The notes: generated by a model not told the origin, from the letters alone. Positions 3,693 through 61,770 are shown, counted from the stretch's first letter. The stretch is DNA of 64,000 bases from Myxococcales bacterium (GCA_002726535.1 PBTG01000079.1:9615-73614); one strand, 5' to 3'. Made by a program: numbers and translations.

Positions 3693-6617
3693 ATGGCATT
3701 CGGGAAGATTTACGTCGACGAGGTTATCGACTCAAATGGAGACACTCTCGACATTTCAGAACTCACCTCCAACGAGGCGACTAATGCAGCTAAGGGCTAC
3801 TTATCAGCAGCAGACAAGGCCAAGCTTGATGGTGTTGCTGCAGGTGCAGAGGTCAACGCAGTCACAAGCGTTAACGGCTCGACGGGTGCCGTCACTGTTC
3901 AGGGCTTCTCAGGCGATTATGCAGACTTAACTAATAAGCCAACAATTCCAACAATTGACCCAAATACTGTTATCGACAGCGGCTATGTAGCAACTGACGA
4001 GAACTTCACAACGTCAGACCACAGCAAGCTGGATGGCATTGAGACTGCAGCAACAGCAGACCAAACCAAAGCAGATATTGATGCACTAAATATTGACGCC
4101 GATACCCTTGATGGACAGCATGGTTCTTATTATACTGGTTATACAGACACGGCAGTTGCGGGTCTCGTATATTCTTCCCCAGCCACTTTAGATACATTAA
4201 ATGAATTAGCAGCAGCTTTAGGGGATGACCCTAATTTTGCCACTACAACTGCCAACAGTATTGGCACTAAGTTGTCAAAATCTGGCGGTCAGATGACGGG
4301 GAATATAACGTTCTCTGGGTCACAAACTGTTGATGGTAGAGATTTATCTGCTGATGGGGCCAAGCTGGATGGCGTTGCCGCAGGTGCCCAGGTCAACGCG
4401 GTCACATCGGTGAACGGCGCAACTGGCGCTGTCACGGTCCAGGGCTTCTCTGGCGCGTACGCCGACCTAACAGGCAAGCCAACGTTAGGCACTGCAGCAG
4501 CTACAGCATCCAGTGCCTACGCCACATCGACCCAGGGTGCTACGGCCGACAGTGCTCTACAGCCAGGGGACGCCAACCCTGTGATGGTTTCTGCTGTTGG
4601 AGATCTCCCCAGCGCATCATCGAATCATGGAGCAGTGATTCATGTCCACAATGAGGGCGCGATGTACTTCGCTCACTCAGGCTCATGGCACAAGCTGCAG
4701 AACGAGTCCTCGGCTTTCTCTGGGTCATACAGCAACCTGAGCAATAAGCCGACGATCATTGCGAACACCTTCAGCACGTCAGCACCCTCATCACCTAGTA
4801 CCGGTGATCTTTGGGTAGACACAACAGACACCCCTCCGGTCCTGAAGTCGTACAACGGCACAGCATGGGTTGCTGTTGGATCTGCAGGTTCCTCAACGAG
4901 CGCACCTGTGATCAATGGCGTGACGTTGTCAGAAGTTGACAGCTCAGGTGATCGCTTCACTAGCGAGTCCTTCACTGTCGCGGTCAATATGCTCGACGAT
5001 GGCTCTCCTATCAGTCAGAAGGGCGTCAAGGGCAAGGTCACCGCAACATTCGAGCAGTTCCCAGTAAGTAACGCTATTACGGCTGGGACGGTATCTACTT
5101 CCCAGACTAGTGAGGGCAATACGACTAAAGATAGTTCAACCAACCTGACACACAACGAGAGTACGGGGGCAGTCTGTTTCAACGTCGTAGACACAAGCAC
5201 TAATTCGGTTAGGTGCTTTATGTGGTATCCCGAGGGCAGCGGTAGTAGCTACGACGATATGTTAGAGAACAGCGGGAAAGATCTGTTAGCTTATACCAGC
5301 GTCGATAATGACTTTTACGGCACCGGTGAATACAAGCAGGGATTAGCCGGTGTGCAAAATAGATTGGGCACCTGGGTAAATATTATGGGCAGGCACAACA
5401 ATGTACAAGCGGCCTTCGAGGTGTCCGGGCTTCTGTCGGGCAACCCTGTAAGGTCAAACAAGAACGAAGTGTCGACAGATGCCTATATATATGTTTCTAA
5501 TGGAAGATCGTTTACTCGATATGATTTAAACCGACAAAATGGTATTAGTTTGTTTTTGGGAGGCGTTCCCTATAGCGGTGGTGGCGGCCCATACTTCATG
5601 GAAACCTTGAGCGATAGGATATTCATTGTCTCACAAAGTAGCACCAGCGGTTCTCTTTGGACTAAAGAGCTAACAGACGCTGCCAGTGCCAACTTGTCCA
5701 ACGGCAACTACATTTACCAAGATAATAATCAATCGGGCTTCAACCGGTACGACATAACGGGCTGCATTTTTCACAAAGGAAAAGTATTAATAAGTAAGGG
5801 CATTAACGGGGGCGGTATTTACGCATTTACCCCAGGCACCTCAAGTCCTACGATTTCAGGCATACCAGCGGCACCTTCTGGTTATCAAAATACTTACGGT
5901 GCGATCTGGGAAGATCCCCTTGGCAATTTAATACTTAGGACAACACACTTTAGCACCGATTGGTCGACTCAAGCTGCTTTCTACTATTCGAGTAACAACA
6001 ACGGCGCGACATGGGTTGCTAATCACTACCCATACGATTCAAACTTTAATTATGAGTATTGGACCCCAGACCTCTACCTATACGGACGGCGTCAAAAGTC
6101 CAAAAGAATAAAAGGCAGCGGCTTATCTGCCACTGTGACAAAGCAGGTCTACACAATACGCTCTCAGACGCTCACCGTCACAAATGGAGCAGATCTGAGT
6201 TCCCTGAACGTTGGAGACATCGTTAGACCGCCCGGCGAGACGGATCCACTTAAGTACTCAAAGATTGATTCAATCTCTTCGAATGGCAATGGGACGACAA
6301 ACGTTGTAGTCAATGGCTTCAATGATTTCGCTGTAGGCGATGTAATTGAGTCCACCGCATCCACCGGATCTGCTACCTCGACGAGGTTCCTCGTGATCAA
6401 TGCTCAGGGCGCCATTACGACCCATCAAGTCAGCGACCCTGGCTTTGTAACTCAAGGCCCTGGAGCGTCACACACGATCACGTTCCCTGCGACGTTCCCT
6501 ACAGGTAACTCTCCAGATGATGAGCTACCTAGTGGAACAACAATCCAGGTCGACGTCCAGGCCGTCAACTCTGAGGCCTCTGACACCTACGCATCCAACA
6601 CCCTCACCCCTTCCTAA
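3693..6617 (+). CDS. Large tail fibre / receptor-binding protein, paralogue A (frame open from TTG 3654; first ATG 3693)
   Basis: Two copies of a ~50-aa KLDG(V/I)xAGAxVNAVTSVNG(S/A)TGAVTVQGFSG repeat. Central region has Asp-box-like SNNNGATW. The C-terminal 80 aa is nearly identical to paralogue B (..ITFPATFPTG..DDELPSGTTIQVD..NTLTPS). The conserved 5' UTR is shared with 6642-6700. Confidence 0.65.
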   Translation: MAFGKIYVDEVIDSNGDTLDISELTSNEATNAAKGYLSAADKAKLDGVAAGAEVNAVTSVNGSTGAVTVQGFSGDYADLTNKPTIPTIDPNTVIDSGYVATDENFTTSDHSKLDGIETAATADQTKADIDALNIDADTLDGQHGSYYTGYTDTAVAGLVYSSPATLDTLNELAAALGDDPNFATTTANSIGTKLSKSGGQMTGNITFSGSQTVDGRDLSADGAKLDGVAAGAQVNAVTSVNGATGAVTVQGFSGAYADLTGKPTLGTAAATASSAYATSTQGATADSALQPGDANPVMVSAVGDLPSASSNHGAVIHVHNEGAMYFAHSGSWHKLQNESSAFSGSYSNLSNKPTIIANTFSTSAPSSPSTGDLWVDTTDTPPVLKSYNGTAWVAVGSAGSSTSAPVINGVTLSEVDSSGDRFTSESFTVAVNMLDDGSPISQKGVKGKVTATFEQFPVSNAITAGTVSTSQTSEGNTTKDSSTNLTHNESTGAVCFNVVDTSTNSVRCFMWYPEGSGSSYDDMLENSGKDLLAYTSVDNDFYGTGEYKQGLAGVQNRLGTWVNIMGRHNNVQAAFEVSGLLSGNPVRSNKNEVSTDAYIYVSNGRSFTRYDLNRQNGISLFLGGVPYSGGGGPYFMETLSDRIFIVSQSSTSGSLWTKELTDAASANLSNGNYIYQDNNQSGFNRYDITGCIFHKGKVLISKGINGGGIYAFTPGTSSPTISGIPAAPSGYQNTYGAIWEDPLGNLILRTTHFSTDWSTQAAFYYSSNNNGATWVANHYPYDSNFNYEYWTPDLYLYGRRQKSKRIKGSGLSATVTKQVYTIRSQTLTVTNGADLSSLNVGDIVRPPGETDPLKYSKIDSISSNGNGTTNVVVNGFNDFAVGDVIESTASTGSATSTRFLVINAQGAITTHQVSDPGFVTQGPGASHTITFPATFPTGNSPDDELPSGTTIQVDVQAVNSEASDTYASNTLTPS

Positions 6618-50891: not shown

Positions 50892-51283
50892 TCCTCTTCC
50901 TCGTCCTCGAAAGTCACATCAACGGAGACACCAGCGCCTAGGACGAGGCTCCCGAACCACTCAGCAATATCGTCATTTTCCCAGCCGTGGTCCTCATAGA
51001 GCGCGTTTGCCGCGACCTCGAGAGCTGGCCCATGTGACTCATCGAATCCGCCGGTCTGCTCGGCTTCCGCCTTGACAGAAAGAGTTGACCTCAGCAGCTC
51101 GAGCTCCACGAGGTCATCCCACTGATCCCCAAGCGCAACATCAAAACGCAGCCTCTCAGGGTCGATCCTGGAGAGGATTGCACGCATCAACGATGAGAAT
51201 TGTTCGGTGAATTTTTCAATATCTGCCAAGCCTTTTTCTGAGATCCAGATGGCCACCTGATAGGCCCTGCTCGGTTCGCTCAT
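50888..51283 (-). CDS. Hypothetical acidic protein
   Basis: ORF track. C-terminal EDEEEE. Translationally coupled to the primase (ATGA overlap). Confidence 0.35.
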   Translation of the reverse strand: MSEPSRAYQVAIWISEKGLADIEKFTEQFSSLMRAILSRIDPERLRFDVALGDQWDDLVELELLRSTLSVKAEAEQTGGFDESHGPALEVAANALYEDHGWENDDIAEWFGSLVLGAGVSVDVTFEDEEEE

Positions 51284-52821
51284 GGTGTAGCTCCTGCTGT
51301 TGGAGTCTTCCGAGAGAGCCGCTCAATGCTCTCGACGGTGTCGGATATTTCGCGCTCGGCATTGTTCCTGATATGAGACAGCACCTCAGGCACTGGCGAC
51401 AGCAAGGACCGCAGCTCATGGAACTCGTCCTCGGGTAGCGAACGAATAGCGGAGCCGAATACGGCCGAGACAAGGCCAGGCTCAACAGATGCCTCGAGGT
51501 AGAGGATCAGATTCCACGCCAGGTAGTACGGAGGAACCTCAAAAGTCATTCCACGCAGGCTGTCCCGCGACTGGGGCAACAGCAGGTAACAACGAACCGC
51601 CCTCCTCTCAACCCACTTGCGGGCGTCACGCTCCTGCTTAGTGACCACGGGAGCGGCGGGCCTGACCTTGGGAGCTTGGCCCAGGATTTCAGCCGCTCGG
51701 CGCTCGACGTAGGCGCGTTGACCGCCGACAGGCAGGACTGAGAGAATGCGCTTAACGCCACGCTCCGCGACCTGGACCGACTCGATGTCCTCGAGATTGA
51801 CTTTGCCTAGCTCACGACCCAACCACCACTTCACCCAGTTAGGAGCCGAGGCGATCATCTCCTTCATGACGTCGACACCCTTCTCCTGGGTCACGCTGTC
51901 GGGGTCTTCACCCGCAGGCATGGACAAAATGCGAAGGGTGATCGTCTCCGATAAGACCATCTCCCTGAGTTTCTCGAGGGCCTTGTAGGCAGCCTTCTCT
52001 CCAGCAGCGTCACCGTCGAAACACAGGGTGACGACCTTTGCTCCACAACGCCGAACCAGGCTGTTGATCTGGTCATGGCTTAGTGCTGTGCCAGAACATG
52101 CGACCACGTTGGTCAGGCCTTCTTGATGCAGCTTGATGACGTCGAACTGGCCCTCTGTGATGACCACCTCGCGAGACTTGCGGATCGACTCAGCGGCATG
52201 ATCAAGGCCAAAGATGAGCCTGGATTTGTCGTACAAAAGGTCGCTAGGAGAATTCTTGTATTTGGGCATCTGGCCAGCCAGGGCACGGCCGGTGAATGCG
52301 ACGGTTCGGCCCTGGACATCACGCAGGGGCACCATCAACCGATCACCCGTGAAGCCGAGACCCCAAGCTTCCGCGGTTGCTTTGCTGATGCCACGCTCCT
52401 TCAGGTAAACGCAGGCGTCCCGATTGGCGAATAACTGATCAGCGAAGAGCTTCTCCTGCTGCTCACGCTTCACGTACAAGAGATGGCGCTGCTTCTGCTC
52501 TTCCTTGAATCGCTCAGAATTCTCGTCGTTCTCGTGCTCGATCTGGATGTTGTGCCGCGAAGCGATGCGCTCGATGGCCTCCTGAAAAGTCAGGCCCCGA
52601 TCCTGCAGCCAGCCCAGGGCATCGACACCGTGCTGGCAGACGTGGCAGTAGGCGAAGTTTTTTTGTGGGCTGATCGATAGAGAGGGTTTGCGGTCCTCGT
52701 GCCAGGGGCAGTGGGTCACATACTCGCGGCCCATGCGAGTTAGCTCGACGCCCTCCATCGCGTCGACGATCGAGGCCTTTTCTTTGACGTGATCGATTGT
52801 TCGCTGGCTGATGCGTGGCAT
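51280..52821 (-). CDS. dnaG: DNA primase (DnaG-like: zinc-binding domain + TOPRIM)
   Basis: N-terminal CPWHEDRKPSLSISPQKNFAYCHVCQHGVDALGWL is the DnaG CHC2 zinc finger. VVITEGQFDVIKL (E-G-x-x-D) and CFDGDAAGEKAA (DxD) are TOPRIM motifs. Confidence 0.85.
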   Translation of the reverse strand: MPRISQRTIDHVKEKASIVDAMEGVELTRMGREYVTHCPWHEDRKPSLSISPQKNFAYCHVCQHGVDALGWLQDRGLTFQEAIERIASRHNIQIEHENDENSERFKEEQKQRHLLYVKREQQEKLFADQLFANRDACVYLKERGISKATAEAWGLGFTGDRLMVPLRDVQGRTVAFTGRALAGQMPKYKNSPSDLLYDKSRLIFGLDHAAESIRKSREVVITEGQFDVIKLHQEGLTNVVACSGTALSHDQINSLVRRCGAKVVTLCFDGDAAGEKAAYKALEKLREMVLSETITLRILSMPAGEDPDSVTQEKGVDVMKEMIASAPNWVKWWLGRELGKVNLEDIESVQVAERGVKRILSVLPVGGQRAYVERRAAEILGQAPKVRPAAPVVTKQERDARKWVERRAVRCYLLLPQSRDSLRGMTFEVPPYYLAWNLILYLEASVEPGLVSAVFGSAIRSLPEDEFHELRSLLSPVPEVLSHIRNNAEREISDTVESIERLSRKTPTAGATP

Positions 52822-52869: not shown

Positions 52870-54522
52870 CTACAAACAGACCGGGCGATCGCTATCGATA
52901 TAGCAGTGGTCACGGTTAAAGCTGAGGATCGATTCATTGACTGTGATCTGCTTGTCCTGGACTCGCTGACCGTTTCGAACCTTCCCGTGGATCAGGTTCA
53001 CCAGGCCCCGGTCGAACTTCTCGCCGGCTTCCAGGTCTGGCTTTTTGAACTCCATCAGCCACACAGCGGAGGCCAATTGGGCCAGGGCGTCGGTGCCGTT
53101 GATGTGGATGGCTTGAGGGCCTTTGGGATCGTCAGCAGCTCCACGGTTTAACTGGCAGAGCAGGAATAGATCGACCTCGCATTCCTTAGCGGCGCCGTGG
53201 AGGATCTGAGCCCTGACTTCCATCTCCTGACTGCGGTCGCGTGGCCCCTTGGCCGTAGGACGCAGGGCATGAAAATGGTCCAGAAAGACTGCGGAGATGG
53301 AGGGGTCTTTTGCTTTTGCGGCGCGGAGCACCTCGACGAAATCGTCAGCCTCAGCAAGAAATTGGCAGTAGCTCTGAAAGTTCCCGCCGCCGAGCAGTTT
53401 GTCCTCTTGCAGGCAGTTCATCAGATGTAGATAAGCGGCGCTGATCGTCTCTGTCATGCCGATTTTTCCGCGACCCTCGAGGCGCCACTGAGGCAGAAGG
53501 CGGACCATCTCCTCAGGCATCCGGCCGACGCTCTGCAGGTGGCGGGCGTAGTGAGCCAAGAACCTGGCCCCAATCTCTTTCTGATTCAGCTCGCAAGATA
53601 GAAATAAAACATCCGCGCCATTAGCGACCAGGCCGGCAGCGGCTGCAATCGCGAGCGTGGACTTACCCACGCCGGTCCTTGCTCCTATGAGGTGGAGCTT
53701 GCCCGCGTCGTTTTGCTTAACGCCTCCCTGAATGTCCATGTCGAGGGACATGATCCCGGTGCTAACTGGCTCGCAGTGCTCCTTGGTCATCTCCTGCTCG
53801 ACTTGAAACCACGCATCCTCAGCCGAGGCGAATGCGTAGCTATTGCCGATCCGACCGGAGAAAATATCGCGGGCTTCTTGCAGCTCAGCGGTGCATTGTT
53901 CGAGAACCTCGGTCACGTCGACCTCACGCTTGACGCTGCGAATCAACGCCTCGCCTAAGCGGCTGACCTTTTGGCGACCCCAACGAGTGCGGAGAATCTC
54001 GGCAGAAATCCTGAAGTCAGAAGCCGGGACGCCATCGACCTCGAGCTCGATGCCCTGGACCGCACGGGCGAAGTCTTGAAGGGAGGCCGTTGAGATCTTG
54101 CTTTCGATCTGCTCTCGCAGGGATTCGATCAATGCGGCGCCATTGATCAGTTGAACGGAACGGCGGTTCCGGTAGGTGGCGTCGATCTCCTGAGCGACCC
54201 ACTTCGCGTCCTTGTCAGTCCACAGGCTCGAAGGCAGTTCGTCGCTGTACTGCAGACCTAGGAGAGTTCTGAATTCACCCCACTGGTCTCTGTGGTCATG
54301 CTTGCCAGCGAGACAGAAACCTAGGACTAGACGTTCTTGATCTCCGGTACTAGATGCACCGGACTCCTCGCGGCGCTGTTGGCGGTCCTGTTCGAGATTG
54401 GCCTGGACCTCTGCGAGGTTCGCGACTGGCAGCCCTTGCTCGTTGAGTTCGAGGTTCCCCTCGGCGACCGCCTTGTCGATCAGGTTGGCGGCCCAGTCGA
54501 ACTGTTGTGGATTGAGTGTCAT
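52870..54522 (-). CDS. dnaB: DnaB-family replicative helicase
   Basis: Walker A LIGARTGVGKSTLAIAAAAG in a RecA-like C-terminal domain. Total length ~550 aa. Adjacent to the primase. Confidence 0.7.
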   Translation of the reverse strand: MTLNPQQFDWAANLIDKAVAEGNLELNEQGLPVANLAEVQANLEQDRQQRREESGASSTGDQERLVLGFCLAGKHDHRDQWGEFRTLLGLQYSDELPSSLWTDKDAKWVAQEIDATYRNRRSVQLINGAALIESLREQIESKISTASLQDFARAVQGIELEVDGVPASDFRISAEILRTRWGRQKVSRLGEALIRSVKREVDVTEVLEQCTAELQEARDIFSGRIGNSYAFASAEDAWFQVEQEMTKEHCEPVSTGIMSLDMDIQGGVKQNDAGKLHLIGARTGVGKSTLAIAAAAGLVANGADVLFLSCELNQKEIGARFLAHYARHLQSVGRMPEEMVRLLPQWRLEGRGKIGMTETISAAYLHLMNCLQEDKLLGGGNFQSYCQFLAEADDFVEVLRAAKAKDPSISAVFLDHFHALRPTAKGPRDRSQEMEVRAQILHGAAKECEVDLFLLCQLNRGAADDPKGPQAIHINGTDALAQLASAVWLMEFKKPDLEAGEKFDRGLVNLIHGKVRNGQRVQDKQITVNESILSFNRDHCYIDSDRPVCL

Positions 54523-54557: not shown

Positions 54558-55424
54558 TCAGCTATTGACAGGCCCTAAGCCGGCGGCGATCAGACTGGCC
54601 TTGTGTTCGTCGAGGACCTCATCGGAGAGGTCCGGACGCTTATAGCTCCAACGTGTCCCCGTCCAGTGGAGAAATTCCTCGGAGGGATGCTGAATGCCGG
54701 GCGCCATCACCTCGGAGGCGTCCAGAAAGTCGGCCCACTCGAACATCCTCCAGCCGCTGACGCCGAGCTCCTTGTGACGTTTGTCGGCGGAGATTAGGCA
54801 GAGAATGCAGTCACTGACGGGACGCAGACCCGCACCCTGTCGCGGGTACTGGTTCCGGTAGAACTCGGGGACTTTGCTGAGCGCTGACGCAAATGTTCCG
54901 AGGAACTCATCAGGACCGCCCGCGTAGTTAATGCCCTCTTGGAGTCGCGTCCCCATTTTGGCGAGGTTCGAACGCCGGACCAATTGGGGCCAGGTTTTAG
55001 GGGCACTCTGCTGATAGATGTCCTGCAGTTGAGACCAGATGCCGGCGAGGTCTGTGCTCTCAGGCTCCTCGATTACGGGCTGAGCGGTCCCCGTTTTTGT
55101 AGTGGGGTCTATAGCAGCGGGCTCGGCTTCCTCGACGGGACTGCACTGAGTGGCCACATAGGTCAGAAACTCAAAATATCGCTTGTTTGGTAGTTCCGTT
55201 CGACCAATGCGAGGGCCGCCAGGCTTGCGCACTCCCCTCAGGAAGCTCTGGATGCTCCCAGCCTTTTCAGTCTGGCCGCGCACATAAACCCCATGCGCTT
55301 GGGCCATCAGGAGGACATCTTTGATGTCTGGCTTCTTAGCCTTGCCCTCAGCCTCGTAGATGGCGCTAACGAGCGCTTCCATCTCCGCGAGATACCCATC
55401 AGGGAAAAACCAACTCTCACTCAA
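54558..55424 (-). CDS. Hypothetical replication-associated protein (possible initiator/helicase loader; TTG start, alt ATG at 55382)
   Basis: Sits between the iteron cluster and the helicase gene. No recognised motif. Confidence 0.3.
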   Translation of the reverse strand: MSESWFFPDGYLAEMEALVSAIYEAEGKAKKPDIKDVLLMAQAHGVYVRGQTEKAGSIQSFLRGVRKPGGPRIGRTELPNKRYFEFLTYVATQCSPVEEAEPAAIDPTTKTGTAQPVIEEPESTDLAGIWSQLQDIYQQSAPKTWPQLVRRSNLAKMGTRLQEGINYAGGPDEFLGTFASALSKVPEFYRNQYPRQGAGLRPVSDCILCLISADKRHKELGVSGWRMFEWADFLDASEVMAPGIQHPSEEFLHWTGTRWSYKRPDLSDEVLDEHKASLIAAGLGPVNS

Positions 55425-55525
55425 AGTTTCTGTTCGAATGCTTATAACCTACCCACGTTGTCCCTTTAGTTAATTGCTCTTTCTCTTCTATTCTCTCTTC
55501 TATTCTCTATACATATAAGTGTAAA

Positions 55526-55603
55526 TGGACATTTCATCCACAATCGATGGATAAAACGTCCAAAACTTTGGACAAAACGGCCATGACTATGGACAAAATG
55601 TCC
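55526..55603. repeat. Iteron cluster: 3 x 14-bp direct repeats TGGAYAAAAYGKCC at 21-bp spacing plus a degenerate fourth copy
   Basis: TGGATAAAACGTCC 55548-55561, TGGACAAAACGGCC 55569-55582, TGGACAAAATGTCC 55590-55603, and degenerate TGGACATTTCATCC 55526-55539. Flanked by an AT-rich stretch CTCTATACATATAAGTGTAAATGG and pyrimidine direct repeats TCTCTTCTATTC x2 (55470-55505). Confidence 0.6.
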
Positions 55604-55625
55604 ACGATTTATTGAGCAGAACAGC

Positions 55626-55787
55626 CTAGAGCCTGCCTTCCTTTTCCCATTTCTGAGCCAGTCGATAGAACGTTGATCGACTGATCAATGGCGCGAGCTG
55701 TTTCGATATTTCGAGCAGGGTCGCACCCTCGGCCAGGGCCTCCCTGGTAACCCCGATAATTCGCTGTTCGTACCGCTCCCAGTCCAT
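55626..55787 (-). CDS. Small HTH DNA-binding protein (53 aa; below ORF-track cutoff)
   Basis: Minus-strand translation MDWERYEQRIIGVTREALAEGATLLEISKQLAPLISRSTFYRLAQKWEKEGRL has a canonical HTH (ATLLEISKQL..ISRSTFYRL). The overlapping listed ORF 55609..55956 is an alternative frame with a less protein-like translation. Confidence 0.4.
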   Translation of the reverse strand: MDWERYEQRIIGVTREALAEGATLLEISKQLAPLISRSTFYRLAQKWEKEGRL

Positions 55788-55888
55788 GCCTGTCTGTTTC
55801 GATCACAACCCCCATACCCTTCCTGTTCGAACGTTGACAATTGAGGAGCGCAGGGCTACGGTCAAAACAAGCTTTTGTGGATCCCCCT

Positions 55889-56617
55889 ATGACAAACCAC
55901 ACAAATAACAACAGCATCGGCGACCAGCGCAGAGAGGTCGGCCGTAGCCATTTCACTCAAGTTTTGGGATTCATGCTGAAAGACGTCAGCCACCCTGAAA
56001 TGGCGTTGCTGGCCGATTGGGCGACGAACGAGCCTGGCTGTCTCCACACATCACAGCTCTCACATTTGAGGAACGCCCGCATGAAAATGCTCGGGGTGAA
56101 AAGTCTGGACAGTTTGGGGCGAATCAATACGTCGATTCATGCACTGAAGACTGATCGGAAAGGCTCATTTCGAGCAATGGATACCGCAACCACCACGGCA
56201 CGCATAGAAGAAATCGTCGAGCGTTTCGACCCGGTTCTGCACCCTCAGACAGGACTGCCTCTCGATGCTGGCGATTTGATGATGGTTTATCTCGGCTATC
56301 TCGAGCTTCCTGAGTTGGTGCCGGCTGCTGCTGTCGGCGACCAGGCCATGGCGGAAGCTGCCTCAAAAATCGGTAGTTGGGTTGAAGAGCTGCTCAGCGA
56401 GCGCGGTCTCAAGTTCCGAGACGGCTTGCAGCTCATCAAAGACAAGTGGACAGGATCTGACGCGGGAAGGGATTTGTTTTGTCAGGTGGTGGCCGGGATG
56501 GCTGAATACACCACCGAACAGCTCAGGGTAGATCTAGAACCCATCGCAGCAACGATCTCGAGCCTCATCGATGAGGACATTGTTGCGGCAGACATTGTGG
56601 AAATGGTTAACGCCTGA
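55889..56617 (+). CDS. Hypothetical protein (first ATG of ORF 55841..56617)
   Basis: Divergent from the HTH gene. No motif. Confidence 0.35.
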   Translation: MTNHTNNNSIGDQRREVGRSHFTQVLGFMLKDVSHPEMALLADWATNEPGCLHTSQLSHLRNARMKMLGVKSLDSLGRINTSIHALKTDRKGSFRAMDTATTTARIEEIVERFDPVLHPQTGLPLDAGDLMMVYLGYLELPELVPAAAVGDQAMAEAASKIGSWVEELLSERGLKFRDGLQLIKDKWTGSDAGRDLFCQVVAGMAEYTTEQLRVDLEPIAATISSLIDEDIVAADIVEMVNA

Positions 56618-59787: not shown

Positions 59788-60347
59788 CTTACGACCACAT
59801 CAACCCGAATCACTACAAAGGCGGGCGGCGTTTCGAGCCGATCGACGTGATCGAGGACTGGGGTCTCAACTACCACCTGGGGAATGCCTTGAAATACATC
59901 TCGAGGAACGGCAGGAAGCCCGGCGAGGACCCGCGAGAGGGATTGAGCAAAGCAATTTGGTATCTCGAGCGCCTGCAGGATCAACTCGACTGCTGCGACT
60001 GCAACCCCTGCGAGGAGTCGTGCCCGTGCGATCCCTGCGACGAGTGCCCGTCATCTACTCAGGAAGAGGCCGAGTTCAAGGCCCTGGGCGATATCCCTAA
60101 TTCAGTTTTATTTGGGGCTGACGATGACATTCTTACCTCGACAATTCCCCAAAAAAACTGGGGGAAGGATTTATCTAAATTCTCCGACGATTCCGAAATT
60201 ATTTATCAGTCCTATGAGGGCGGCTATGTGTTTGGCCATTTAAAAAATGGAGACGTTCGGATCGTGGGAAAGCGTGGCGCACCCGTCACGACGTTTGACG
60301 GGGACAATGCTCCATCAGAGCATGAACCACTGCTGCATGATTGTTGA
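59784..60347 (+). CDS. DUF3310-family phage protein with C-terminal Cys-rich segment
   Basis: HYKGGRRFEPIDVIEDWGLNYHLGNALKYISRNGRKPGEDPREGLSKAIWYL matches the DUF3310 pattern (HY....IE.IDVI......F..GN..KYI.R...K.....DL.KA..YL). It is followed by CCDCNPCEESCPCDPCDECP. Confidence 0.6.
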   Translation: MTYDHINPNHYKGGRRFEPIDVIEDWGLNYHLGNALKYISRNGRKPGEDPREGLSKAIWYLERLQDQLDCCDCNPCEESCPCDPCDECPSSTQEEAEFKALGDIPNSVLFGADDDILTSTIPQKNWGKDLSKFSDDSEIIYQSYEGGYVFGHLKNGDVRIVGKRGAPVTTFDGDNAPSEHEPLLHDC

Positions 60348-60822: not shown

Positions 60823-61770
60823 ATGATCGAAACAGCAAGCGGAACAGAGATCAGGTTCAATCAGCCTGACTCCGCCTATCGAAAGGCTGAGGGCATTAGC
60901 CAGTCAGAGCTCAAGGAGGTCCTGAGATCACCTGCTCACTGGGCCGCCCGCTACGGCCCCGATGCTTCGCCTACATTCCCGTCGATCGCCATGATTATCG
61001 GGATTGCCCTGCATTGTAAACTCCTCGAGCCTGAGATCTTCGACTCTCAGTTTGTCGATCGAAGTTCTTTGGATAAAGAGCTCAATGTCGCAGAGTTGAA
61101 GGCGGCCCTGGATGACGAAGGCATCGAGTACAAAAAGAGCTCCAAAAAGCCAGAGCTCGAAGCCCTGCTCTACCCAGAGGGCAAGCCCATCGACAAGCGC
61201 ACGAGCCTCAGTGGTGACGATTTCGCAATCGTCCAGGGCATGGCAGAAGCCACCCGCGCCCATCCCATCGCCGGCAACTGGTTTGACCCAGGCCGTAAAA
61301 ATTTTCGCAGAGGGAATGAGCTCTCGATGTATGTCGAGCCATCGGCTGACACCTATGGCCTACCAATCAAGGGCCGCCTCGATCGCCTGGAGAAGACGGC
61401 CGACGGTTGGATGATCTTGGATCTAAAAACGACCGACGACGCCAGCCCCAGCGTTTTTCAGAAGAAGTCCTTCTCTATGGGCTACCACATACAGGCTGCG
61501 TTCTATACGGACCTGGTCAAGAAGGTTCTCGACGCCGACAACGTTGAATTTATTTTTTGTGCCATGGAGCGCCGCAGGCCTCACGGCATCGCGCTTTACA
61601 AAGCCAGCGAGGACATGATCGAAATCGGTCGGACTCAATATAAAAAAGCTCTAAAAGAACTGGCTTTTTGCAAGTCCAGGGACTTGTTCCCCGGCTACGA
61701 TTCGAATATCATCGACCTGTCTCTTCCCGGCTGGGCTAGCAATCTTGCGCATGAATCGCCGCTCTTTTAA
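60823..61770 (+). CDS. PD-(D/E)XK-superfamily exonuclease (RecE/YqaJ-like recombination nuclease)
   Basis: GRLDRLEKTADGWMILDLKTT...YHIQAAFY carries the D..(x)n..D/E-L-K motif of PD-(D/E)XK nucleases. Lies downstream of RecT, SSB and RusA. Confidence 0.55.
   Translation: MIETASGTEIRFNQPDSAYRKAEGISQSELKEVLRSPAHWAARYGPDASPTFPSIAMIIGIALHCKLLEPEIFDSQFVDRSSLDKELNVAELKAALDDEGIEYKKSSKKPELEALLYPEGKPIDKRTSLSGDDFAIVQGMAEATRAHPIAGNWFDPGRKNFRRGNELSMYVEPSADTYGLPIKGRLDRLEKTADGWMILDLKTTDDASPSVFQKKSFSMGYHIQAAFYTDLVKKVLDADNVEFIFCAMERRRPHGIALYKASEDMIEIGRTQYKKALKELAFCKSRDLFPGYDSNIIDLSLPGWASNLAHESPLF

Follow-up and report, generated by a model that had tools for sequence, protein, structure and literature searches.

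A candidate lambda-like replication origin of iterons and an easily melted flank in an uncultured marine siphovirus

In the iteron plasmids RK2, pPS10 and R6K, the iterons that precede rep have two roles, as an origin and as an autoregulatory operator. The origins of phages T7 and T4 consist of a promoter and an unwinding element, are primed by a transcript and contain no iteron array. In phage lambda, ori (read directly from NC_001416) holds four iterons of the form TCCCTC-AAAAC-GAGGGA at 20/24/23 bp, followed on the sense strand by AAAAGAAAAAAGAAAAGA (ACAAAAGAAAAAAGAAAAGA). Dimers of the lambda O protein bind imperfect inverted repeats, the iterons are intrinsically bent, and, for unwinding, the AT-rich region and the two iterons closest to it are enough (PMC7466680). 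Origins of siphovirus-type marine cyanophages are apparently unmapped, and the genome paper of cyanophage P-SS2 mentions neither an origin nor the repeats in its gene gp107 that are described below.

Here, we analysed a 64-kb stretch of DNA (the window), which is a segment of an uncultured marine siphovirus distantly related to P-SS2. It carries tailed-phage structural genes and an endolysin, together with a replication/recombination module that holds a dCTP deaminase, DnaG primase, DnaB-like helicase, RecT, a sigma factor, SSB and an exonuclease VIII-like protein (60823-61770, plus strand; residues 84-118 of the latter gave a short match to an Arc-like repressor PHROG). P-SS2 was the closest cultured relative, as judged by its DnaB and by shared gene order. 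An array of repeats within the minus-strand replication operon has the same order, polarity and CGTTTTG-type centre as the lambda iterons. Judged on its sequence features, the interval 55449-55604 is probably a phage replication origin of the lambda-like type, comprising iterons and an unwinding element. The initial annotation of this DNA had proposed an iteron-type origin or an operator array, a proposal now supported by conservation in relatives, by arrays of similar design inside initiator genes, by the likeness to lambda ori and by the easily melted flank.

Anatomy of the repeat array and its flank

Three repeats at 21-bp spacing had been listed in the initial annotation (TGGATAAAACGTCC at 55548, TGGACAAAACGGCC at 55569 and TGGACAAAATGTCC at 55590), along with a degenerate copy at 55526. 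The three were confirmed, and the degenerate copy is a genuine fourth site that was kept in all 13 lineages described below; the array thus consists of four sites, not three, with start-to-start spacings of 22/21/21 bp. Each site is a 15-bp dyad of the form TGGAC-N5-GTCCA with a T-tract centre, in which 4-5 of the 5 arm pairs are symmetric, a feature missed in the earlier description. The nearly palindromic junction noted there between the first two repeats can indeed be seen, as a mere by-product of adjacent dyads. The array had also been placed at the point of divergence from a plus-strand gene. Its actual place is inside the minus-strand operon, in a 201-bp non-coding gap (55425-55625) between HTH53, a gene for a 53-aa helix-turn-helix (HTH) protein, and the gene for a 288-aa protein. 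The minus strand is the transcribed sense strand at the array, and on it the order runs from HTH53 through the array to the 288-aa gene, the helicase and the primase (Table 1). Iteron 1 begins 21 nt past the HTH53 stop codon.

The array was the top tandem repeat of the window in a TRF search (period 21, score 74). A relaxed pattern, TGGNY-N5-RNCCA, matched eight times in the 64 kb, with four of these matches inside 100 bp, while the largest cluster of this pattern in 300 first-order Markov simulations had two members. A chance origin of the four-site cluster is excluded. The periodicity of A/T-tracts across the array reached the 99.5th percentile of the window; a further peak of A-tract periodicity, at 60151, was rejected as ordinary coding sequence. 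No conserved DnaA box was found, since an 8/9 match at 55534-55542, seen by eye, was not kept in the relative L002.

On the side of the 288-aa gene, the array is followed by a conserved TATAT box, exactly 6 bp after the last iteron, and by an AT-rich tract. The AT-rich stretch and the two direct repeats of TCTCTTCTATTC (55482-55505) reported earlier were both recovered. The interval 55465-55565 was the least stable duplex of the window at scales of 40, 60 and 100 bp (mean nearest-neighbour dG of -1.07 to -1.18, against a window mean of -1.475), the GC content of the flank being ~30%. In addition, 55449-55508 was the most purine/pyrimidine-asymmetric 60-mer of the window, with 18% purine on the plus strand. 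We regard the AT-rich tract as a candidate DNA unwinding element and the TATAT box as a candidate first melting point and/or -10-like element. A second YYTATATRTA box, at 5482, was set aside: it belongs to an AT-rich portion of a structural gene and is without iterons.

A short motif, CTGTTCGAAC on one strand and TTCGAACAG on the other, with the palindromic core GTTCGAAC, occurs at 55430-55439, immediately ahead of the 288-aa start codon, and a second time at 55823-55832, abutting TTGACA in the divergent control region, with a further copy at 55764-55773 within the HTH53 gene. It was kept at both intergenic places in relatives, and two to three copies were found in the divergent region of P-SS2. 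Across the window there were 8 matches against 3.4 expected, which is no enrichment. The motif may be an operator of HTH53 or of the 242-aa protein encoded on the opposite strand.

Table 1 Features of the candidate origin and the surrounding operon (window coordinates).
Feature	Position	Strand	Description
DnaG-type primase	51280..52821	minus	Family match
DnaB-like replicative helicase	52870..54522	minus	42% identical to P-SS2 DnaB
288-aa protein, candidate initiator	54558..55424	minus	N-domain 8-94, acidic linker 95-122, C-domain 126-288
Conserved pre-start element	55430..55453	minus	GGTAGGTTATAAGCATTCGAACAG; ends 5 nt before TTG start; includes TTCGAACAG motif
AT-rich tract (candidate unwinding element)	55449..55509	minus	Purine-rich on minus (sense) strand; 2 x GAATAGAAGAGA at 55482-55505
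Conserved TATAT box	55510..55519	minus	CTTATATGTA; family consensus YYTATATRT; exactly 6 bp after last iteron
Iteron 4	55526..55540	minus	TGGATGAAATGTCCA, centre flipped; adjoins AT-rich flank; the former degenerate copy
Iteron 3	55548..55562	minus	TGGACGTTTTATCCA
Iteron 2	55569..55583	minus	TGGCCGTTTTGTCCA
Iteron 1	55590..55604	minus	TGGACATTTTGTCCA, perfect dyad; farthest from AT-rich flank; invariant in the window, L002 and L010
HTH53	55626..55787	minus	53-aa HTH_23-like; first replication-operon gene; homologue of P-SS2 gp105
Divergent control region	55788..55888		Between HTH53 (minus) and 242-aa gene (plus, ATG 55889)

Conservation in relatives and similar arrays elsewhere

No match to GenBank phages was obtained by megablast of the region or by tblastn of the 288-aa protein. 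From metagenomic relatives of the 288-aa locus, 24 loci were fetched and their upstream regions read; these include 13 distinct lineages with 53-90% identity in the 288-aa protein. The initial annotation had named non-conservation of the iterons in related phages as an outcome that would count against it. Instead, place, number, phasing and register were kept in all 13 lineages. Every lineage carries 4-5 sites at intervals of 20-24 bp. The distance from the end of the last site to YYTATATRT is exactly 6 bp, and from the ends of the others it is 28-30, 49-53, 70-75 and 91-96 bp. The box is followed by a GA-rich tract that carries TAAGAGAG-type repeats and contains 65-77% purine over its first 60 nt, and a conserved GGTAGSYTGTAAGCATTCGAACAG element stands just before the start codon. 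No such array was found in L025, which at 42% identity in the alignment is the most distant relative.

The arms of the sites fall into several types. Type A (TGGAC-GTTTT-GTCCA) was seen in the window, L002, L010, L012, L017 and L013, type B (TTCCC-GTTTC-GGGAA) in L014 and L022, and type C (GTCCC-GTTTC/GAAAC-GGGAC) in L023 and L024, between which the site centre flips orientation. Hybrid arms (TTCCC-GTTTT-GTCCA) make up all four sites in L019 and L020 and are mixed with type B in L015, L021, L014 and L027. The 6-bp spacer between the last site and the box likewise varies in sequence among lineages. Because arms and spacer vary by lineage, it is the geometry that is constrained, not the letters; the conservation of this geometry together with a C-GTTTY-G core points to a protein-binding array under selection. 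In the hybrids (L019, L020, L021, L015 and L014) TTCCC was always the left arm and GTCCA the right; no site showed the converse pairing of TGGAC with GGGAA. GTTTT centres accompany GTCCA arms, and GTTTC centres mostly accompany GGGAA arms.

The stretch is sharply mosaic. HTH53 and most of the ~100 bp upstream of it (window 55626-55890) are identical at the DNA level in L002, L010 and L012, with flanks that differ by 2-9%, while the iteron array just downstream of HTH53 is 29-30% different in L010 and L012. The idea of a hypervariable array, raised by this 29-30% divergence against 1.3-6% elsewhere in L010 and L012, was rejected, as no rise was seen in L002 or L017; the divergence in L010 and L012 is a mosaic replacement and not a general hot spot.

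Similar arrays were found outside the family. IMG/VR was scanned with a pattern of three arm5-CGTTTYG-arm5 sites 5-8 bp apart, in which gene context and flank played no part; the likeness in the core was imposed by the search pattern and is not independent evidence. Nine contigs were recovered, and in eight of them the array lies within a gene. Six of these eight genes match the PHROG families 'replication initiation (O-like)' or 'DnaD-like helicase loader', and that of L029 also matches PF04492 Phage_rep_O. Genes for DnaB or a DnaC-like loader adjoin the arrays in L026, L029 and L032. In the five contigs checked for polarity, transcription runs through the iterons into a purine-rich AT tract of strand-skewed repeats. 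The same pattern gave further cases, L041 and L043, in GTDB genomes.

One contig, L027 (IMGVR_UViG_3300020417_002350), has no protein similarity to the window and carries the same cassette at ~188-351: three copies of TTCCCGTTTTGTCCA and one of TTCCCGTTTCGGGAA, a 6-bp gap, CTTATATATAAG, a GA-rich tract and GGTAGGTT. A strong terminator precedes the cassette and an unrelated signal-peptide gene follows it. L027 was the sole result of a cassette scan of IMG/VR, and this case suggests that the cassette moves between phages.

Inside gp107, the gene just before dnaB, P-SS2 has its own set of four 22-23 bp repeats (GGGATGACAGCGAGGCTTCCATGGG; L001 6316-6407), with AT-rich repeats of the TAATAAG type after them. 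The repeat region (L001 6316-6470) corresponds to about 93826-93980 of NC_013021, and our analysis points to it as a candidate for an unannotated origin.

Neighbouring genes and the candidate initiator

The 53-aa ORF that the initial annotation had proposed as an unlisted HTH gene is a real gene: at least 14 metagenome contigs have a gene call for it, and all relatives conserve it. Compared with L017, it has ~11 synonymous changes and two conservative replacements (counted by eye). Its product matches HTH_23/HTH_28 below the Pfam cut-off, the HTH matches being generic, and aligns with P-SS2 gp105 at an hhalign probability of 93%. That P-SS2 homologue gave a weak match to a small-terminase PHROG (E = 9.5e-5). 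The suggestion that the small HTH protein binds the repeats gained no support from co-variation, as its helix 3 is about the same in L013, with TGGAC arms, and in L014, with TTCCC arms. Among the few lineages available, type C arms go with an altered HTH53 helix 3, while types A and B share a near-identical one. We also dropped the idea of a split O protein, with HTH53 as the detached DNA-binding domain of the initiator, since P-SS2 possesses a full two-domain gp107 alongside gp105, its homologue of HTH53.

Upstream of HTH53, the divergent control region contains, as judged by eye, TTGACA (55834-55839), a 17-nt spacer and TACGGT; the adjacent CTGTTCGAAC motif is conserved in P-SS2. A promoter consensus scan found no consensus promoter in this region. 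Transcripts that cross the array probably start here. On the plus strand, the 242-aa protein (55889-56617) is encoded by the first gene of the RecT operon, at the position of P-SS2 gp103, and is conserved without a family match; residues ~53-80 look XRE-like by eye only, and the protein could be a regulator partner of HTH53.

The initiator is most likely the 288-aa protein, acting through its N-domain, with HTH53 as an alternative binder. The N-terminal SWFFPD motif of this 288-aa protein is shared by homologues, which sets the start codon as the TTG at 55424. The AlphaFold model shows a compact helical N-domain with a small hairpin, a disordered acidic linker and a C-domain; the N-domain folded alone with a pLDDT of 86. 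In this predicted form the protein shares the two-domain layout of O-type initiators. Neither Pfam nor PHROGs gave a match for the 288-aa protein, its distant homologues or P-SS2 gp107, hhalign against lambda O was negative, and in fold comparison the protein, N-domain included, matched no solved fold. DNA binding by the N-domain is, for this reason, an assumption. Type C arms go with a changed hairpin region in the 288-aa protein, and types A and B are not separated by its N-domain.

The 288-aa family comprises 39 homologous clusters (34-90% identity), all metagenomic and none annotated; scans of IMG/VR, by single protein and by alignment, and of GTDB genomes, by alignment, found no relatives of either the 288-aa or the 242-aa protein. 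A full-library profile search yielded 36 proteins, of which 30 were aligned as distant relatives (set A6), with only the C-domain in common. The N-terminal region of this set matches the N-terminus of P-SS2 gp107 (hhalign 94%). The C-terminal ~165 residues (54558-54930) form an unnamed domain found in at least 30 proteins of 160-940 aa (hhalign 99.9%), which differ in their N-termini and have no Pfam or PHROG matches; the gene of one member, in L036, lies upstream of a DnaB gene. The repeat pattern of L036, a distant homologue, is different and indistinct. These alignments indicate that N-domains have been swapped on a common C-domain, which would fit a role of the N-domain in origin specificity and of the C-domain in contact with the replication machinery.

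Interpretation and comparison with described origins

In the sequence of events that we infer, the initiator would bind the four dyad sites, whose T-tract centres recur every 21-22 bp, about two helical turns, such that the sites would lie on the same helical face and the DNA would be wrapped or bent. The resulting strain would be relieved by opening of the TATAT box and the purine-skewed AT tract next to it, and the phage's own DnaB-like helicase would be loaded at the opening, with the DnaG primase to follow. Early transcription that starts in the divergent region 55788-55888 would pass through the origin, as transcription from pR does at ori-lambda. In L013 the first iteron directly adjoins the HTH53 stop codon, with no space for a terminator in between. 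In favour of an origin, the array heads the helicase/primase operon. A GC-skew analysis, which the initial annotation had suggested as a check, was run on the window and was uninformative within it, the cumulative skew having no turning point at 55.5 kb.

The strongest alternative, which we consider unlikely, is that the array is solely an operator on an internal promoter, regulated by HTH53 or by an autoregulating 288-aa protein. The TATAT box would then be the -10 element, the last site would lie over the -35 position, and the replication operon would have the GA-rich tract as its 5' leader. The sites are dyad-symmetric with lambda-operator-like spacing, the last one spans about -35 to -21 relative to TATATG, TGGACG of the type A arms matches TTGACA at 4/6 positions, and a small HTH gene is adjacent. 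The L027 cassette, which follows a strong terminator and precedes an unrelated gene, probably has a promoter there for that reason and fits a promoter cassette equally well. However, the consensus scan found no sigma-70-type promoter, the box lacks a T at the last -10 position in every lineage, and the -35-like match is lost in type B and C arms. The array also lies outside the divergent control region, the usual place of switch operators, and HTH53 helix 3 is near-constant between L013 and L014, which differ in their arms. An operator alone would account neither for a flank with the lowest duplex stability and strongest strand skew in the window nor for the same design inside initiator genes elsewhere. 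The evidence favours an origin over an operator, and the operator function is compatible with it as a second one; the array may double as a regulated promoter.

It is very improbable that the array is a partition (centromere-like) or packaging (pac/cos) site, serving a segregation or small-terminase protein. Repeated, phased sites beside a small HTH protein would suit such a site, as would the weak small-terminase match of the P-SS2 homologue of HTH53, but HTH matches are generic, no ParA/ParB-type genes were found among the scanned neighbours, the site belongs to the replication module, a long way from the structural genes, which occupy the opposite end of the window, and the unwinding-element-like flank would go unexplained. 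Least probable of all, and rejected here, is that the repeats act as hairpins in RNA or DNA, either as a terminator or attenuator downstream of the HTH gene or as a structured RNA. Every dyad has the potential for a stem of 5 bp, and the scans gave two weak terminator-like matches and one sub-threshold Rfam miRNA-precursor match (29 bits against a 100-bit cut-off). However, the hybrid arms of all four sites in L019 and L020 match at only 2/5 positions and hence cannot pair, with number, spacing and register unchanged; the 5-bp stems have no conserved U-run after them, and the centre orientation flips between L023 and L024.

Beyond the lambda-like origin proposed here, a broader reading, to which we give little credence, is that of a portable origin cassette served by an unnamed family of phage initiators. 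It would comprise the iterons, a palindromic TATAT box at fixed offset and GA-rich repeats; initiators with an N-domain of no known fold and a C-domain common to at least 30 other proteins; an origin moved out of the initiator gene; swappable half-sites, as in the TTCCC/GTCCA hybrids; and transfer between unrelated marine phages, as in L027. Firing may occur through a purine-rich transcript from the box that acts as an R-loop primer.

An origin candidate of ~160 bp with conserved geometry offers a target for EMSA, plasmid-origin assays and coverage-based measurement of replication in ocean metagenomes. The 288-aa family, known from metagenomes only and unannotated, is marked as a candidate new class of initiators, and the natural arm variants and hybrids form a data set on the drift of initiator-site specificity. 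As iterons with an unwinding element are textbook features, the conceptual surprise is limited.

Compared with T7 and T4 origins, the locus likewise has a TATA-like box followed by an AT-rich tract whose transcript would be purine-rich, favouring a stable RNA-DNA hybrid; it differs in having an iteron array and in the negative promoter scan at this place. Like the origins of iteron plasmids, it has repeats and an AT-rich putative unwinding element just upstream of a putative initiator gene, and a dual role as origin and operator is plausible by analogy. Unlike them, the window encodes no Rep_3/RepA-type protein (by Pfam, and with no WH1-WH2 fold match for the N-domain), and the sites are dyads rather than purely direct repeats.

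P-SS2 shares the gene order of the window in its gp105-gp107-dnaB-primase module, with an extra gene, gp106, whose product is ribbon-helix-helix-like as judged from sequence by eye. In contrast to the window, its repeats lie inside gp107, have another unit and are without a T-tract centre, and homology between gp107 and the 288-aa protein is not demonstrable (hhalign probability 5.5%). The in-gene arrays of other contigs (L026, L028-L031, L033 and L034, and L041 and L043 in bacterial genomes) likewise consist of arm5-CGTTTYG-arm5 sites, in 3-7 copies ~21 bp apart, with an adjoining AT-rich, strand-skewed repeat tract in the same polarity. They are translated as the linker of an initiator (repeated TKRH/DETS peptides), whereas the window array is non-coding and its candidate initiator belongs to an unnamed family.

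The closest likeness is to lambda ori. Both have at least three dyad sites (4-6 imperfect inverted-repeat iterons, 20-24 bp or about two turns apart, with CGTTTTG/CAAAACG-type A/T-tract centres), an easily melted, AT-rich flank with a purine-rich sense strand, the same polarity with respect to early transcription, and helicase-related genes immediately downstream. The array of lambda lies in the middle of its initiator gene, and those of P-SS2 and eight IMG/VR contigs are also in-gene, while that of the window is intergenic. The arms are 5 bp (TGGAC) in the window and 6 bp (TCCCTC) in lambda, and the window has in addition the conserved TATAT box at a fixed 6-bp offset. The 288-aa protein is without detectable similarity to O and gave no match to Phage_rep_O or related replisome-organiser families. 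Finally, this phage encodes its own DnaB-like helicase and DnaG primase, whereas lambda supplies a P-type loader for the host helicase. What distinguishes the origin candidate of the window is its intergenic position, the TATAT box at fixed offset, the hybrid half-sites and the unnamed initiator family.
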